From positions 37,521 to 101,520 of the forward strand of contig CAYXZI010000001.1 of the NCBI GenBank assembly GCA_964470105.1: a DNA stretch of 64,000 nucleotides, written 5' to 3'. Shown one piece after another: positions 3,929-53,939 of this stretch. Source of the stretch: an uncultured Candidatus Saccharibacteria bacterium (GTDB taxonomy: Bacteria; Patescibacteriota; Minisyncoccia; Phycocordibacterales; PALSA-1337). Position 1 is the first letter of the stretch; the number at the start of each line of letters is the position of its first letter. The notes beneath the pieces are model-generated. The model did not search any database, was not told the origin of the DNA, and saw only the letters and a list, made by a program, of their open reading frames with translations. The position numbers and the translations under genes were made by a program.

Positions 3929-4275
3929 TCTAGATCAAGACAAACGGAATTAATACAATACCTTCTACCGGTTTTGGTCGGACCATCGTTAAACACATGT
4001 CCAAGGTGTGAATTACATTTTGCACACACAATCTCAGTCCTATGCATACCATGATCACTATCTTCAATTTCCTTTACTGCATTAGGTATAGCCTGATCAA
4101 AACTGGGCCAACCTGATCCAGAATCAAACTGCGTATCTGAAGAAAATATTGGATTATCACATGCTACACACTTATATATACCATCTTTTGTCTTGTGTAC
4201 GTATTTACCAGAAAATGGCGCTTCTGTACCTTTTTCTTTCAAGACTCTTTGTTGTTCTGGTGTTAGCTTTTTCAT
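3925..4275 (-). CDS. msrB: Peptide-methionine (R)-S-oxide reductase MsrB
   Basis: SelR/MsrB motifs: [30 protein letters not shown]; two CxxC pairs. Confidence 0.9.
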
Positions 4276-4823
4276 ATTTTACTTTTATCTAATAGTCTTT
4301 CAAATCTTTCTTGTAATTTCTCTAATTTTGGTGCAATTACTAGCTGACAGTATGGTTGATCTTTGTTGTTTTTATAGTATTCATGATGATACGACTCTGA
4401 TGGATAGAACACTATAAGGGGTTTAATCTCTGTCACAACTAGTTTATCATATGCCTTGCTATCATTTAATTCCTTTACTAATTTTTCTGCTTTTTCTTTT
4501 TGTTCTGGTGTTGTATAGAATATTGCTGATCTATATTGAGTACCAATATCATTCCCCTGACGATTAAGTGTTGTTGGATCATGTGTATTAAAAAATACAG
4601 AAAGCAAATCGTCATAAGAGATTATAGTTGAATCATATTCAATTTGTATTGCCTCTGCATGACCAGTATTTCCACCCGATACTGATTCATAATTAGGGTT
4701 ATCTGTCTTTCCACCAGTATATCCGGGAGTAACAGATATGACACCCTTAAGCATAGAGAATACTGCCTCTGTACACCAGAAGCATCCATTTGCAAATACA
4801 GCTATAGCATTATCTATCTTCAT
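4272..4823 (-). CDS. msrA: Peptide-methionine (S)-S-oxide reductase MsrA
   Basis: The GCFWC active-site motif plus HDPTT and YHQ-like motifs; 4-nt overlap with msrB. Confidence 0.9.
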
Positions 4824-6317: not shown

Positions 6318-6923
6318 ATGAACACGCAAGTTTTTGCCCTCATGTACATGGTGGGCATGATCGGTCTAACAATCCTACAAGGATACCTATCCTACGTAGG
6401 AAAAGCTTTCTTCGCCCGACAAATGCGAAGGAAGTACGAAAACTTCCTACCATTTACATGGCACTTCGGTGCAAGTTATGGGGATATGCTAATTGTGACC
6501 CCGGTCACAACATGCATGATATGGAAGTATGGTTCGCAATGGCAAGAAAAAACACTGGCTGTTTTTTGCGCCATTACAACCAGCATTATCTTTCACAGAC
6601 TCTGGAGTCGCGACAAAACTCCAGGCTGTCTCATACGTAAACAGCGACTAACTGCTGCTGGTTACGTCCATGTAATATACATGGGTCTATCACTGATCCC
6701 AATACTCAGCTTCTATTTCCAAACTACAACAACTGACGCAAGTTTTGTAGTTACAGTATCCAGTCTTCTAGGACTGCATGTATTTATCGGAAGTCACATG
6801 CTCTTGAGCATAATTAATCCGATAGGTTGGAAGAGTAATCTACGTGATTACCAATCTTGGATTATTGTGACTTGTTGCTGGTTGGCCTTGGTAGTAAGGT
6901 CATATCAGATGATCAACAAATGA
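6318..6923 (+). CDS. Hypothetical multi-TM membrane protein with atypically high GC and atypical codon usage
   Basis: 201-aa ORF with about 5 predicted TM helices. It uses CTA, CTC, TTC and TAC where flanking genes use TTA, TTT and TAT. No recognisable family. Confidence 0.5.
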   Translation: MNTQVFALMYMVGMIGLTILQGYLSYVGKAFFARQMRRKYENFLPFTWHFGASYGDMLIVTPVTTCMIWKYGSQWQEKTLAVFCAITTSIIFHRLWSRDKTPGCLIRKQRLTAAGYVHVIYMGLSLIPILSFYFQTTTTDASFVVTVSSLLGLHVFIGSHMLLSIINPIGWKSNLRDYQSWIIVTCCWLALVVRSYQMINK

Positions 6924-27144: not shown

Positions 27145-27172
27145 TTCTCTATATTAACATATTTTATCACTA

Positions 27173-27201
27173 TTGACATATAGTGTAGAATGTGCTACTA
27201 T
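27173..27201 (+). promoter_or_regulatory. Sigma70-type promoter (TTGACA, 17-nt spacer, TGcTACTAT extended -10)
   Basis: TTGACA at 27173-27178, a 17-nt spacer, TACTAT at 27196-27201 preceded by TG at 27193-27194; it drives the GC-rich ORF 27272..27790. Confidence 0.5.
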
Positions 27202-27271
27202 ATACAACGGTGGGCTGGAACGGATTAGTTCTGGCAAGTAAACAAACGACGAAAACCAAATTGGTTAAGTT

Positions 27272-27790
27272 ATGAACATTGTAAATGCGATGCGCATCGC
27301 TAATCGCGCCAAAACACTCAGTGGCGGAAGAAACTACGCCCTCGCGAACATCTTGTTCGCAGCCGTGCTGGAAGTAGTCTTCACCCAGAGGTCAGCGGGG
27401 ACATGGTGTGTTCCTGTCTCGAACCTGGAAAAGGAGGGGGTGACCACAGAGGTTGTCCTGGAAACCCAAGACACCACTGGGGCATGCCATCGTGAAGCCT
27501 ACTATGACCTCTTGGTCGTGGAGTGCCTCAATAAGGAGGGGATCCTTGAAGGGTCGCTGTGCATCCCGTTGCCACTTTTGGATCCTCTCACCCTTGGGGG
27601 TTTGCTCAAAAAAGTTACGATAGGTGCTAAGAGGGACCACGATCGAGATTTTGAGGTGGATAACGCTGAACTTCTCACCCTCTGGGACAGAGTGCTCAGT
27701 GAGATTGATCCGGGGACTCTCCTGGATCTGGCGACAAGCCACCTCACTCCAAAAGCCATGGAGGCTATGGTTGAGGTAATCCCAGTATAA
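27272..27790 (+). CDS. Hypothetical protein encoded in a high-GC island (possible foreign origin)
   Basis: 172-aa ORF spanning a ~55% GC block inside an AT-rich genome; codons favour GC-ending triplets; own promoter and terminator; no recognisable domain. Confidence 0.45.
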   Translation: MNIVNAMRIANRAKTLSGGRNYALANILFAAVLEVVFTQRSAGTWCVPVSNLEKEGVTTEVVLETQDTTGACHREAYYDLLVVECLNKEGILEGSLCIPLPLLDPLTLGGLLKKVTIGAKRDHDRDFEVDNAELLTLWDRVLSEIDPGTLLDLATSHLTPKAMEAMVEVIPV

Positions 27791-27811
27791 TGGTCATGTG
27801 ATCAAGACTCC

Positions 27812-27850
27812 CCCGTCGAACGAGAAAACTCGATCGGCGGGTTTTCTTTT
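27812..27850 (+). terminator. Rho-independent terminator
   Basis: CCCGTCGAACGAG-AAAA-CTCGATCGGCGGG (13-bp stem, 2 mismatches) followed by TTTTCTTTT. Confidence 0.6.
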
Positions 27851-30729: not shown

Positions 30730-30731
30730 TG

Positions 30732-30802
30732 CTGCCGGACTTGGAATCGAACCAAAATTTTCGCTTTCAGAGAGCGACGTACTACCTTTATACGATCCGG
30801 CA
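30732..30802 (-). tRNA. tRNA-Gln (anticodon CUG)
   Basis: Hand-folded cloverleaf: acceptor UGCCGGA/UCCGGCA with U1-A72 and a G73 discriminator (typical of bacterial tRNA-Gln); anticodon stem TCGCT/AGCGA with loop CTCTGAA; T-loop TTCGATT. Confidence 0.75.
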
Positions 30803-30876
30803 AGGTGTCTATAAAATACCGTAAATCACCACATATTGCAATCTCTGACAATCATATTTGCACCATAAATACAGTA

Positions 30877-30980
30877 GATGATATAATACTGATGTGTGAG
30901 TACGAACAAAGCGAAAGCTTAGATGTAAGTACTTCAATATAAAATGTCTACATGAGATCCTGCCTCGGCAGGATTTTGTG
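30877..30980 (+). ncRNA. Candidate small RNA (extended -10 promoter plus terminator hairpin with no ORF)
   Basis: TGaTATAAT extended -10 around 30877-30885; a GC hairpin ATCCTGCC..GGCAGGAT at 30957-30974 followed by TTTGTG; the ~85-nt interval has no ORF. Confidence 0.25.
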
Positions 30981-31049
30981 TATATAACACAAGACCCGCT
31001 GTTTAGGCGGGTTGATTGTAAGTTCAATTAAGAACAAGTAGGTATCCAC

Positions 31050-31637
31050 TTATGGATCCTCGATGCCGATAAGTACGGGCCACCTGAAACTGACAGGGTC
31101 TAATCGGTCAGCAAATCTGAGTCGATCCCTATCATCTTTGGCATATGGCAATTTATTGAAACTACCCAAATCACTCTCAACACCGAATTGGTAGAAATTG
31201 GGTAATTCCGGGTTGATGCGGACTGCTGCAACCGCCCTATGGCAGCCGGCAGAGATCAATATCTGACGGACAGCACCAGAGACAATTGTTTCTGACGCAA
31301 TTGCAATCGTCTCGCAAAGTGTGGGGGGGCGCAAATCCTTTGCCCCTAGGATCGACATGACATCCTTCCTTCGAAGAGCACATCGACTGGGTTGAGAATG
31401 ATAGGTGACGAAGTGTGCTTTAAATGGTTTGTGTTCTTCCCTGATGAACATCAAAGCCTCTTCTGAGAAGTCCATTTTCATCCAGAGATGAGACTTGCCA
31501 TCACACCCCAACCCAATCCTCGAGCAACTGTACTGATTGTACATAACCGAACCGTCAGTTGATTTGATCTCAACTGATCCAATGACCGACGCGTTTCTTA
31601 TCTTCATTTTCAAACACGAGGGTATCGTTATCCTCAT
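31050..31637 (-). CDS. Hypothetical Cys-rich protein encoded in a higher-GC island
   Basis: 195-aa ORF, ~48% GC against a ~30% background, with several Cys/His (SCLK, CSRIGLGCDG, CETIAI, AGCHRA). Downstream hairpin ACCCGC-TGTTTAG-GCGGGT at 30994-31012. Confidence 0.4.
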   Translation of the reverse strand: MRITIPSCLKMKIRNASVIGSVEIKSTDGSVMYNQYSCSRIGLGCDGKSHLWMKMDFSEEALMFIREEHKPFKAHFVTYHSQPSRCALRRKDVMSILGAKDLRPPTLCETIAIASETIVSGAVRQILISAGCHRAVAAVRINPELPNFYQFGVESDLGSFNKLPYAKDDRDRLRFADRLDPVSFRWPVLIGIEDP

Positions 31638-31750
31638 ACGGGGGCTGTTTAATCCGTTTTCCCCAACGGCTCATTTTACGAAGAACAAAAGACTCTAGAG
31701 ATATATCATTTAAAATACACACTGTCAATGCAGTTGTATATTTGACTTCT

Positions 31751-31863
31751 TGGTATAATAAACATATTGTTCCAAGTGTTGACGAACGGCTGTACTCACA
31801 TTTTAATTTAGACATTATATTTGGAGCTTTCACCCGTTCGTCAACATTCGGCGCAATACACAA
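31751..31863 (+). promoter_or_regulatory. Extended -10 promoter and structured 5' leader of murB
   Basis: TGgTATAAT at 31751-31759; the leader has a perfect 12-bp inverted repeat GTTGACGAACGG (31778-31789) / CCGTTCGTCAAC (31834-31845) around a 44-nt loop; there is no obvious SD before the murB ATG. Confidence 0.4.
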
Positions 31864-51881: not shown

Positions 51882-52352
51882 CTATTTTGGTTGAACACAA
51901 TAGTAAAAGTTTGGAGAAACATCATCACAGTATCCACTTGCCTGACCGAGTGGAGCCCCATCAACATCATCTGTTAACACAGAAGGGTTCGGATTTTCGA
52001 GTTTAGCACGCAATACATAGTCTGTTGCATTTGATGATGGAGATGCAACATAGGCATAAGCAGTACCACTATCTGTTGGAACAACCGACATAAAAGTACC
52101 CAGAGTGACTCCCGTACATACAGATGTACTTGTTGTTAGGACTCCTGAAGCAGGATAATTATTACACTTATCAAAAGCTTGCTCTAGAGCTAACTGAATT
52201 TGAGATAGATCAGACACCCTCTTTGCATCTCTTGATTTAGACTTTGCTGTAAAGAAGTTAGCTGACAATACTGCTGTAAGTATTCCTATTATAGCTACTA
52301 CTACTAGTAATTCTATTAAAGTAAAACCTTTATTAAAAAGTATTTTTTTCAT
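51882..52352 (-). CDS. Type IV major pilin (PilA-like)
   Basis: MKKILFNKG|FTLIELLVVVAIIGILTAV; C-terminal Cys pair (CDD..YYC). A TATAAT box sits 7 nt upstream of the ATG inside the inverted repeat TAGGCTA-TAAT-TAGCCTA (possible leaderless start). Confidence 0.8.
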   Translation of the reverse strand: MKKILFNKGFTLIELLVVVAIIGILTAVLSANFFTAKSKSRDAKRVSDLSQIQLALEQAFDKCNNYPASGVLTTSTSVCTGVTLGTFMSVVPTDSGTAYAYVASPSSNATDYVLRAKLENPNPSVLTDDVDGAPLGQASGYCDDVSPNFYYCVQPK

Positions 52353-52389
52353 TAGGCTAATTATAGCCTATATACGTATAAAAACGAAT

Positions 52390-52429
52390 CCCCAGCGCGA
52401 CACCTTTCTGTCAGGTGTCCACGCTGGGG
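52390..52429 (-). terminator. Strong rho-independent terminator (minus strand)
   Basis: CCCCAGCGUGGACACC-UGACAGAAA-GGUGUCGCGCUGGGG (13-14 bp with one bulge) followed by AUUCGUUUUU. Confidence 0.7.
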
Positions 52430-52444
52430 AAATAAGGGCGTTTT

Positions 52445-52693
52445 TCAGCCCGTGACCTCGTATACCGCCCGGAGGTCCTTCTCAACTAGAGCCCTCAATT
52501 CACCCCTGGAGGAGCACACGTACTCCTTCTTGATACCCTCGGGCCAGGCCAAGGTGGCCTTGGTACCTCGAGGCACCGAACCCTCGACTACCGAGTTGAT
52601 CATCTTGTCGAAGACTCGATTTGAGACCTTCTTCTTCCCAAGCGTCGTGGGGGCGACGCTGGAAGCATCCATTACTGCGGCGAAGTGAGACAT
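52445..52693 (-). CDS. Hypothetical small basic protein encoded by a high-GC, GC3-biased gene
   Basis: 82-aa ORF; a hand count gives ~75% G/C at third positions and purine-rich first positions (a genuine coding signature of a high-GC donor); a strong terminator follows immediately; no family recognised. Confidence 0.45.
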   Translation of the reverse strand: MSHFAAVMDASSVAPTTLGKKKVSNRVFDKMINSVVEGSVPRGTKATLAWPEGIKKEYVCSSRGELRALVEKDLRAVYEVTG

Positions 52694-52781
52694 AACACTA
52701 TATTAACCATCATTGAGTAAAAGATGAGCAACTACTGGAGCCATAAACCAGCAGCTTCATCCGGATAATAATAGTACAACT

Positions 52782-53939
52782 TTAAATACTGCTGTCAAGC
52801 TTTTTATCAACATCATTTAGAGCTTCTCTTGTATATACATTAGAAGCACTCCATAACATCCAACTATTCAATCCTGAATCATATGTAGCTTGTATCTGTG
52901 CCCTTACCATCTCTGGAGTATATTCAACACGACCAATACTAAAATCCTGTAACCAAGGTCTCAATTTGAGTGGAGATGTACTAGCCATATTTGCCTTCTT
53001 TACTCCACCATCCATTACATACTTAATTACTTCGTATGGTTTATTTGCTGGATCAGCATATCCCAGAAAAGTCGGAGGATAGTGTGACGGATAGACCATA
53101 GGCGCAACATAGTCAAAATGCATTAAAGCATTACCGAGTATCTGTCCTATTCCCAAATCATCATTGTTGGTTGTAGTCATACCAAAAAGATCTGCTGATA
53201 TCGGAATATTCTTTTTATGAAAAGTTTCATCTAGATGTGCAAAAAATTCTTTTAATGCATCAGATTTTACCTTACCCTGACTAAATGGAAATGCTATATC
53301 TAGCATATTACCATCTGAAGGAAAGCGGATGTAGTCAAAATTTAATTCATCAAACCCATTAGCGTATGATTCATCTCCGATGAGCACAAGATAGTCCCAG
53401 ACTGGCTTAGCACCCACATCAAGCCAACTTATACCCTTTCTGTCCTTCCACACCTTACCTGCTTTATCAGTTACAGCATATTCAGGTTTTGTTTTAACGA
53501 GATATGAATCTTGGAAACAGGAGATTCTACCTATCACATATATACCTTTCTCATGTAATTCACCAATGAATTCTTTTATGTCAGATATTCTATTCTCACC
53601 TGAACCAAACTTCTTTAGCTTTTCATTATCTGGTATGTAACTTATTCGACCTGTATAGTCTTTAATATCTATAACAACAGAATTTATTTCAGTTTCATCA
53701 ATTATCTTTACCAGCTTCTCCCTTAATTTCTTGCTTCCTGCAACCCAACTAGACATATATATAGCCTTTACTGAGTCTGGGGTTTTTATATGAGTAACTG
53801 CAAACGGAGTTGGTATTACAATTGATGCTCCCGCCACATAATCTGTTTTATATGACTCATATTGAAATGGGTATATGTATGCCCCAACAAGCACAGTGAT
53901 GGATAATAGTATTGAGAATGAATATATATAGATTCTCAT
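52782..53939 (-). CDS. Putative glycoside hydrolase, TIM-barrel (DUF4015/YngK-like), secreted
   Basis: N-terminal signal/TM segment; ~385 aa with acidic catalytic-like motifs (VIDIKD, NGFDELNFDYIRFP) resembling DUF4015/GHL families. Confidence 0.5.
   Translation of the reverse strand: MRIYIYSFSILLSITVLVGAYIYPFQYESYKTDYVAGASIVIPTPFAVTHIKTPDSVKAIYMSSWVAGSKKLREKLVKIIDETEINSVVIDIKDYTGRISYIPDNEKLKKFGSGENRISDIKEFIGELHEKGIYVIGRISCFQDSYLVKTKPEYAVTDKAGKVWKDRKGISWLDVGAKPVWDYLVLIGDESYANGFDELNFDYIRFPSDGNMLDIAFPFSQGKVKSDALKEFFAHLDETFHKKNIPISADLFGMTTTNNDDLGIGQILGNALMHFDYVAPMVYPSHYPPTFLGYADPANKPYEVIKYVMDGGVKKANMASTSPLKLRPWLQDFSIGRVEYTPEMVRAQIQATYDSGLNSWMLWSASNVYTREALNDVDKKLDSSI

Follow-up and report, generated by a model that had tools for sequence, protein, structure and literature searches.

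The window analysed here is a 64,000-nt stretch of contig CAYXZI010000001.1 from an uncultured Candidatus Saccharibacteria bacterium. Between the gene of a DUF4015 protein and a type IV pilin gene, it carries a small open reading frame (ORF) of 82 codons on the minus strand, in which G or C is unusually frequent at the third codon position (GC3). We consider that this ORF is probably a resident, diversifying and autonomously expressed gene of a small basic protein, that its GC-rich codons are maintained by selection, and that it occupies a hypervariable slot between DUF4015 and the pilin. According to the comparison with relatives, the slot is a self-contained predicted transcription unit with conserved non-coding parts. 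As estimated from the alignments, its coding sequence (the cargo) changes at nonsynonymous sites about ten times as fast as DUF4015, under purifying selection with a ratio of nonsynonymous to synonymous substitutions (dN/dS, ω) of 0.25–0.40, and it has been replaced outright in some lineage pairs. G/C-ending codons of the slot genes are kept at about 0.55–0.75, in genomes where those of other genes are at about 0.25.

52445–52693, minus strand: coding sequence of the 82-aa basic protein (pI 9.5, GC3 0.74), supported by periodicity, a homolog in locus L088 and AlphaFold2

Coding evidence and a homologous locus

At the small-gene island, the GC content rises from about 35% to about 56–57% across about 350 nt. 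The original prediction described a GC3 of about 75%, a coding periodicity and a codon usage incompatible with that of the host, and these observations are borne out. The GC contents of the ORF at the three codon positions (GC1/2/3) are 0.53/0.46/0.735, with G at 41% of position 1, against means of 0.46/0.33/0.26 (GC3 ± 0.04) for the 44 long ORFs of the window, whose GC3 maximum is 0.44. G/C-ending codons are about three times commoner than in the neighbouring genes. The three-base periodicity lies above that of mononucleotide shuffles (p = 0.0016), and p < 0.0002 is obtained for the slot ORF of the relative L001. The length of the ORF alone is not significant and gives no coding evidence, because 22% of the dinucleotide shuffles of the island hold an open run of at least 85 codons. 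Two other assemblies (L006 and L007) span the junctions of DUF4015, island and pilin identically, and relatives share the layout. Assembly chimerism is therefore excluded. The L006 and L007 copies are identical to the window and thus offer zero polymorphism.

Loci were fetched via DUF4015 from genomes, metagenomes and a protein collection, and all belong to Patescibacteria. In L088, the DUF4015 of which is 93% identical to that of the window by BLAST (92% in a global alignment), an uncalled 84-aa ORF is located at the same place. It shows 57% amino-acid identity to the window protein, keeps the ATG and the stop codon, differs by an indel of two codons (3n), and has a GC3 of 0.71. The Nei–Gojobori estimates for this pair are as follows.

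Window and L088, cargo: dN 0.31, dS 0.77, ω 0.40
Window and L088, DUF4015: dN 0.03, dS 0.93, ω 0.03
Window and L088, pilin: dN 0.27, dS 1.25, ω 0.21 (65% amino-acid identity)

A block of 25 codons (GSVPRGxKATLAWPEGIKKEYxCSS) has about 11 synonymous and 2 nonsynonymous differences, a TCC/AGC serine switch included. Four of the six frames appear unconstrained in this pair (ω 0.66–1.23, 3–8 stops). The antisense frame sharing the third positions gives ω of 0.34 against 0.40 for the sense frame, and only the sense frame is intact from ATG to stop in both loci. Five concordant AlphaFold2 models of the 82-aa product were obtained, with a predicted local distance difference test score (pLDDT) of 68.7–69.2 and 46 residues at 70 or above. 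Their core at residues 20–82 is β-α-β-β-α-β. The models of the antisense control disagree with one another; their pLDDT drops from 61.9 to 37.0, and just 7 residues reach 70. The integrity of the ORF, the orientation of promoter and terminator, GC1 greater than GC2 and the AlphaFold2 models favour the sense strand. These data support the ORF as a real protein-coding gene, with a codon usage alien to its genome.

Maintenance of the GC-rich third positions

The retention of third bases was compared between the window and L088 at the codons with conserved amino acid and first two bases. The third positions differ at similar frequencies in the cargo (34%), DUF4015 (35%) and the pilin (42%). G/C faces A/T at 19% (12/62) in the cargo versus 60% (112/186) in DUF4015 and the pilin together (Fisher p = 2.6e-8). 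According to a two-state model calibrated on host genes, a gene with GC3 of 1.0 at the split should have reached 0.59 (bootstrap confidence interval 0.49–0.67), and the observed value is 0.76. The loss of 0.19 is the amount that the host's turnover rate would produce in a gene whose own stationary GC3 is about 0.75. As the gene behaves like one at its own stationary GC3, the bias is maintained by selection or by a process specific to the gene, and does not represent the fading relic of a transfer.

The independent pair L094/L096 replicates this behaviour: the GC3 of the cargo is 0.66–0.68 versus 0.22–0.31 in three flanking genes, and the G/C loss is 0.22 versus 0.46 in the flanking genes (p = 0.002). 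Over 14 slot genes, the mean excess above DUF4015 is +0.28 at position 3 (p = 0.0006), +0.09 at position 1 and +0.07 at position 2, and the GC3 of the slot gene shows no correlation with that of the host. In 12 AT-rich hosts, the cargo GC3 averages 0.58 (range 0.43–0.74) and that of the host 0.25. In L001 (0.48/0.31/0.69), L094 (0.51/0.37/0.67) and L096, practically all of the excess lies at the third position. Judged by position, such an excess is not what the composition of a foreign proteome would look like.

These results bear directly on the transfer proposed in the original prediction, in which the GC3 would be the unameliorated codon usage of a recent high-GC donor. The contrast of 0.74 with 0.26 would fit such an origin, as would the rise of 0.08–0.10 in GC1 and GC2 of the window copy, and the anatomy of own promoter, own terminator and deviant GC resembles that of a phage moron (PMC3594210). 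The coding sequence is, in addition, demonstrably replaced in some lineages. However, a related genome that is itself AT-rich (L088, DUF4015 GC3 0.25) has a homolog with the same bias in the same position after a dS of about 0.8, the kind of finding that the original prediction itself named as refuting a transfer. The G/C third bases are kept three times better than in the flanking genes, L094/L096 replicates the result, and in three loci the excess is at third positions only. No donor-like homolog was found, and none of any kind among 1.84e9 representatives, 5.8e9 clusters or viral contigs. The adjacent pilin alleles, which co-vary with the cargo, are AT-rich (GC3 0.19–0.22), and the allele pool should therefore live in AT-rich genomes. 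Thus, the reading as a high-GC transfer is largely refuted by these comparisons, and we regard it as highly improbable. The other parts of the original prediction hold, namely a real gene, an alien codon usage and a strong terminator, and the pilin gene downstream is probably leaderless.

Two explanations of the bias through translation were considered. That G/C-ending codons are translationally optimal is unlikely from the codon usage of the window, where the pilin has the minimum GC3 (0.19) and housekeeping genes have 0.17–0.33; the window holds no ribosomal-protein genes for this comparison, and the idea was rejected. Alternatively, G/C-ending codons could tie synthesis to a subset of tRNAs or tRNA modifications, such that the protein is made in particular states only. 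In favour of such gating, the bias is synonymous and maintained, abundant and housekeeping genes avoid G/C-ending codons, and C34 tRNAs for G-ending codons are present in the window (Thr-CGU and Gln-CUG). The argument draws on the tRNAs of a 64-kb window, and leaves the 5' and 3' hairpins described below unexplained. We consider codon gating improbable.

A conserved slot with replaceable coding sequences

In one clade the gene order is TP_methylase, a small gene, DUF4015, a slot of 384–477 nt, pilin, prepilin peptidase and minor pilins. The slot has a common frame. A promoter (TTGnnn, 17–18 nt, TAnnAT) is followed 3 nt later by TATCCrGA, then by a stem-loop, an A/U-rich leader, an ORF of 61–100 aa, a terminator and the −10 box of the pilin. 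Among 66 loci with an identifiable next gene, 36 have no slot (less than 100 nt) and 22 have a slot of at least 250 nt. In L002, L011 and L012 the unit is located between DUF4015 and an ATPase gene, with no pilin there. The link is therefore to DUF4015, not strictly to the pilin. The slot ORF was left uncalled by gene callers in about half of the syntenic contigs (L088 1607–2058, L091 3644–4049, L095 2108–2545 and L098 3653–4064), and this is why searches of protein databases missed the homolog of the window gene.

The identities of four pairs are given below (CDS, coding sequence; z, against shuffles; flanks, 5'/3').

Window and L088: DUF4015 93%; CDS 71% nucleotide identity, z = 7.7; flanks 81%/82%
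L094 and L096: DUF4015 92%; CDS 67% nucleotide identity, z = 5.1; flanks 66%/82%
L001 and L091: DUF4015 90%; CDS at shuffle background on both strands, z = 1.6; flanks 87%/81%
L098 and L100: DUF4015 87%; CDS z = 2.5; flanks 82%/56%

In the pair of the window and L088, divergence is greater in the coding sequence than in the untranslated stretches on either side of it. In L094/L096, the cargos have 42% amino-acid identity (ω 0.25). The coding sequence is replaced between L001 and L091, with breakpoints at most a few nucleotides from its start and stop codons, and L098 and L100 resemble this pair. The window and L001 (76%) are 70–88% identical in DUF4015 and 50–57% in promoter and leader, fall to alignment background across the ORF, and are 78–90% identical from the terminator into the N-terminus of the pilin. 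The conserved flanks of the slot are TATCCrGATGAG...GCTCAT and CCCCAG...CTGGGGATT, and replacement may proceed by homologous recombination within these untranslated parts. Each cargo is unique to its locus or pair, and no two different backbones were found to share one. A deep homology of the window family with the L091/L094/L096 family has limited support from hhalign (E = 0.033 over 47 columns, shuffle z 5.0), with most other pairs at background. A single superfamily of all cargos is only partly supported by the profiles.

Other routes of variation were examined. The equal lengths of the L001 and L091 cargos raised the idea of an invertible segment, which was rejected, as no similarity was found on either strand. 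No integrase is present among the precomputed Pfam matches of the called genes within 2.5–3 kb either side of DUF4015 in the syntenic loci. Regarding attC sites, the 5' stem-loop and the terminator account for all inverted repeats, and no dedicated attC model search was made. For a diversity-generating retroelement, no reverse transcriptase is present among the precomputed Pfam matches of the called genes in the loci, and no repeat search was made. The differences between the window and L088 are spread over all bases and codon positions, unlike adenine-specific variation.

Recombination at the slot also allows a different account of the GC3, in which the segment stays rich in GC at a recombination hot spot with no selection on mRNA, either by GC-biased gene conversion or by the recurrent import of alleles from a GC-richer reservoir. 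Allele replacement demonstrates the recombination, and the excess is strongest at synonymous sites. In L094/L096, the dS values of cargo and pilin (1.59 and 1.28) exceed those of the backbone (0.64–0.66), which suggests from the divergence estimates that older alleles are shuffled by recombination, as this account would have it. On the other hand, the GC rise is limited to the coding sequence; the leader has about 25% GC, and the hypervariable pilin has the lowest GC3 of the window. The GC3 of hosts never exceeds 0.67 among the relatives in the data and is at most 0.56 in those bearing the unit, and no cargo is shared by two different backbones. We judge conversion or re-import unlikely as the source of the bias, and continue to favour selection.

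Transcription signals and stability of the mRNA

The features of the predicted transcription unit in the window are as follows.

52771–52798, minus strand: small-gene promoter, TTGACA (52798–52793), 16-nt spacer, TACTAT (52776–52771)
52760–52767, minus strand: transcript-start motif TATCCGGA, 3 nt past the −10 box (predicted start site)
52722–52762, minus strand: 5'-terminal stem-loop GGAUGAAGCUGCUGG...CCAGUAGUUGCUCAUCU, 0–4 nt from the predicted 5' end
52694–52721, minus strand: AU-rich leader (about 25% GC) with no Shine–Dalgarno sequence
52379–52429, minus strand: intrinsic terminator, 17-bp hairpin (52429–52390) and U-tract (52389–52379)

The promoter matches the consensus at 10 of 12 positions, its −35 box overlaps the last codons of DUF4015, and promoters are aligned at the same place in at least nine relatives. 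The motif TATCCrGA is kept in the window and in L001, L002b, L008–L012, L091, L094, L096 and L098, and variants occur in L088 (TTTCCCGGA), L090 (CATCCGGA), L100 (TGTCCAGA) and L041 (TTTCCGGA). It was also considered as a genome-wide motif and rejected as such, since the window has 8 matches versus 4.35 ± 1.95 expected and is not enriched. The 5' stem-loop of the window has a folding energy of −17.5 kcal/mol (z = −3.9). A stem-loop is present at the 5' position in nine of nine units tested (z −1.2 to −4.4); the stem sequences differ, and the distance from the predicted 5' end is 0–8 nt across the slot units. In L088, changes from G·U to A–U preserve the pairing. The leaders of relatives are A/U-rich, and GGAGG is found in L002b and L011b.

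The original prediction had noted a very strong terminator with a stem of 13–14 bp. The hairpin at 52429–52390 is stronger still, with 11 + 6 = 17 bp and one bulge, followed by UUCGUUUUU, and its outer stem CCCCAG...CUGGGG is conserved in relatives. A simple terminator scan presumably missed it owing to the bulge.

A 16-codon ORF (MKLLVYGSSSCSSFTQ, then a stop) lies at 52719–52763 on the minus strand and starts at the ATG of the conserved GGATG within the 5' stem-loop. The relatives share the position of this ATG, and the peptides differ in length and sequence; the ORF is not conserved and is probably not meaningful.

A GC island in an AT-rich genome is usually the sign of a structured RNA, and the unit was initially taken for one. 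The whole unit folds well (z = −3.7), an ORF of this length is not unexpected by chance, gene callers skip it in L088, L091, L095 and L098, and ORF-less units similar to small RNAs stand beside the slot in L002 and L011. An RNA gene with an incidental ORF would agree with these points. No family of Rfam 15 reached the gathering score, and none was found with E ≤ 10 as the limit (best 14 bits, E > 1); ARAGORN detected no tmRNA. The coding sequence itself is no more structured than shuffled sequences (z = −0.56 for dinucleotide shuffles, −1.05 for synonymous permutation), and the strong structure therefore sits in the terminal hairpins. The constraint is frame-specific, with the 3n indel, the kept start and stop codons and the significant periodicity, and neither sequence nor structure is conserved across cargo families. 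We rejected the structured RNA, which we consider extremely improbable for the window unit.

The extra units in the relatives (L002 5140–5295 and L011 about 4240–4430) are located between DUF4015 and the slot gene. Each has a promoter (TTGACA...CTAnAT), a long hairpin RNA of 110–150 nt and its own terminator. The hairpin is closed by GCCACCC/GGGUGG or GCCCAGG/CCUGGGC, and the L002 unit folds with z = −8 and has no Rfam match at the gathering score. These units possibly represent an undescribed small RNA of Patescibacteria.

For the small gene of the window, we prefer selection on mRNA composition, as part of a design for a stable mRNA. The 5' stem-loop, the GC-rich body and the strong 3' hairpin would together give a long-lived, strongly expressed monocistronic mRNA, and the selected trait would be the composition itself and no particular fold. 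5'-terminal stem-loops that stabilize mRNA are present in the Escherichia coli ompA leader and in the Bacillus subtilis aprE and ermC leaders. As in these leaders, the hairpin of the slot is a few nucleotides from the predicted 5' end, and an unstructured AU-rich region for ribosome loading comes after it; a strong 3' hairpin is added. Unlike in these leaders, the 5' end is placed from the sequence alone, and the start motif TATCCrGA has no known counterpart.

Several points weigh against this interpretation. Only 41 and 34 codons enter the retention test, which relies on a two-state model, and in L094/L096 the neutral maximum (0.72) is not exceeded. dN/dS does not distinguish between the sense frame and the antisense one with the same third positions. 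The AlphaFold2 model is of moderate confidence only and matches no known fold. The transcription start, the half-life of the mRNA and its translation are read from the sequence, and the leader in the window lacks a Shine–Dalgarno sequence. The rationale of mRNA stability is one that we infer, and a GC-rich reservoir of alleles with frequent re-import keeps a small probability.

Pilin and DUF4015 neighbours

52782–53939, minus strand: upstream anchor gene DUF4015, putative glycoside hydrolase (Pfam E = 6e-98, GC3 0.26)
51882–52352, minus strand: downstream type IV pilin (Pfam N_methyl, GC3 0.19)
52350–52370, minus strand: pilin promoter region, TAGGCTA-TAAT-TAGCCTA (52370–52353), TATAAT 52365–52360, 7 nt, ATG 52352–52350

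The placement of TATAAT 7 nt before the pilin ATG, inside the inverted repeat, agrees with the original prediction. This spacing is exact, and a Shine–Dalgarno sequence is missing, in eight of nine syntenic loci, from which the pilin mRNA is probably leaderless. The −10 palindrome is not recurrent (absent in L090, L094, L098 and L100), and in L091 two compensatory changes preserve it (CAAGCTA-TAAT-TAGCTTA). The palindrome may serve as a lineage-specific operator. The pilin is hypervariable in its globular domain (window 51935–52183, minus strand), with 64–65% amino-acid identity where DUF4015 has 92–93%. The dS of this domain is above that of the backbone, and its codons are host-like and AT-rich (GC3 0.19–0.22).

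Product and possible role

The absence of a recognisable family, stated in the original prediction, is confirmed by profile searches in Pfam, PHROGs, PADLOC, NCBIfam and PDB, none of which gave a match for the 82-aa product. No sequence relative was found by word search in 5.8e9 clusters (self match only) or by exhaustive phmmer in 1.84e9 cluster representatives (self and P0002 only). P0002, of 840 aa with 52-aa tandem repeats, was rejected: its E = 6e-20 is summed from ten weak copies at about 22% identity and is an artefact. It is probably translated satellite DNA, and is a caution on repeat-rich database entries. The island had no match in a phage DNA collection or in viral contigs.

The product would be a small, basic, soluble cytoplasmic protein with a disordered N-terminus followed by the β-α-β-β-α-β core. 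The slot products in general are small and soluble, with a pI of 8.2–10.6 in 11 of 12, and no signal peptide or membrane segment is predicted. An RbfA-like match of the L096 product is below threshold (19 bits versus a cutoff of 236) and is a lead only. Since the gene diversifies quickly, its alleles are replaced and a hypervariable pilin adjoins it, the pattern of variation suggests a role in an arms race or other antagonistic interaction, or in a surface-related one, possibly tied to the variable pilin.

Comparison with known systems

Loci of variable pilins, for which we take the Pseudomonas aeruginosa pilA groups with tfp accessory genes as an example, also have a hypervariable segment beside the major pilin, conserved flanks, block exchange of alleles and co-variation with the globular domain of the pilin. 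The small gene differs in being located upstream, separately transcribed and unrelated in sequence, with no predicted enzymatic domain. The slot resembles an integron cassette in its fixed expression site and exchangeable small ORFs of varied composition. In contrast to an integron, no integrase or attC-like site was seen, each unit brings its own promoter and terminator, and a site has a single cassette (L002 and L011 have two units, of which the extra one is ORF-less).

Phage morons are autonomous units of promoter, ORF and terminator with deviant GC, inserted between conserved genes (PMC3594210). The small gene resembles them in its predicted σ70-type promoter, single small ORF, factor-independent terminator, deviant GC (about 57% versus 35%), presence or absence between syntenic genes and ORFan product. 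It differs in that the slot belongs to a chromosomal locus that is conserved (methylase, DUF4015, slot, pilin operon), phage genes are absent from the surroundings, and PHROGs gave no match. In addition, the non-coding frame of the slot is conserved in the clade while the ORF alone changes, and the GC deviation is maintained over long divergence. Judged by this comparison, the gene fails two features that define a moron, the phage context and a composition marking recent transfer. Prokaryotic species-specific orphans normally track the GC of the genome (Rho 0.96), or have a lower GC if derived from phages (PMC11293555). The slot genes are likewise short, fast-evolving, under weak purifying selection, without detectable homologs and often uncalled; unlike such orphans, their GC3 exceeds that of the host by 0.3–0.5. 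On these likenesses we rate the small gene as an orphan that is moron-like, yet apparently resident in a slot conserved on the chromosome, and with an inverted codon bias that is maintained.

Other GC-rich units of the window

A second GC-rich unit is located at 27150–27850 on the plus strand. It has TTGACA-17-TACTAT, a short 5' hairpin, an A-rich leader, an ORF at 27272–27790 (172 aa, GC1/2/3 0.60/0.39/0.61) convergent with the flanking minus-strand genes, and a strong hairpin with a T-run at about 27805–27850. No Pfam, PHROGs, PADLOC, NCBIfam or Rfam match was found, and only the unit itself in 5.8e9 clusters. A third island, at 30810–31860 on the minus strand, lies directly upstream of tRNA-Gln(CUG) (30731–30802), with a TTGACA-type promoter near 31725 and a terminator-like hairpin at 31012–30994. 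Its ORF (31050–31637, 195 aa, GC3 0.51) has no family match, and the island has no Rfam match at E ≤ 1. With at least two further units carrying their own putative signals, GC-rich ORFan units may be general in this genome. Among the otherwise ordinary long ORFs of the window, the top GC3 (0.44) belongs to a 201-aa ORF at 6318–6923 on the plus strand, with a membrane-protein-like N-terminus.

A more speculative idea, which we hold to be rather unlikely, is that the slot gene belongs to a new class of "composition-insulated" conflict genes of AT-rich CPR (candidate phyla radiation) bacteria. Their small proteins would diversify rapidly, and their GC-rich, doubly hairpin-capped mRNAs would resist, and stay translatable under, A/U-targeting endoribonucleases, from sources such as toxin–antitoxin systems, phage RNases or the global mRNA-decay state of the episymbiont. 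Selection on nucleotide composition would then let a mirror-image codon usage persist over long evolutionary times. If this is true, the GC-rich ORFan units at 27.2 kb and 31 kb of the window would be further members.

Biological significance

Deviant GC3 is commonly taken as a mark of transfer. The orthologous pairs studied here give a counter-example, in which it appears to be a maintained native property, and a cheap test that can be used elsewhere is to compare how well G/C third bases are kept in a gene and in those that flank it. The results also define a hypervariable expression slot, with a swappable coding sequence and conserved untranslated parts, beside the type IV pilus genes of Patescibacteria, in which the pilus is generally assigned a role in attachment and DNA uptake. 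As gene callers miss the gene in about half of the loci, protein databases do not show the slot family. Should selection on mRNA composition underlie the bias, the limits on mRNA survival and translation in minimal cells would become approachable through a gene of 250 nt.

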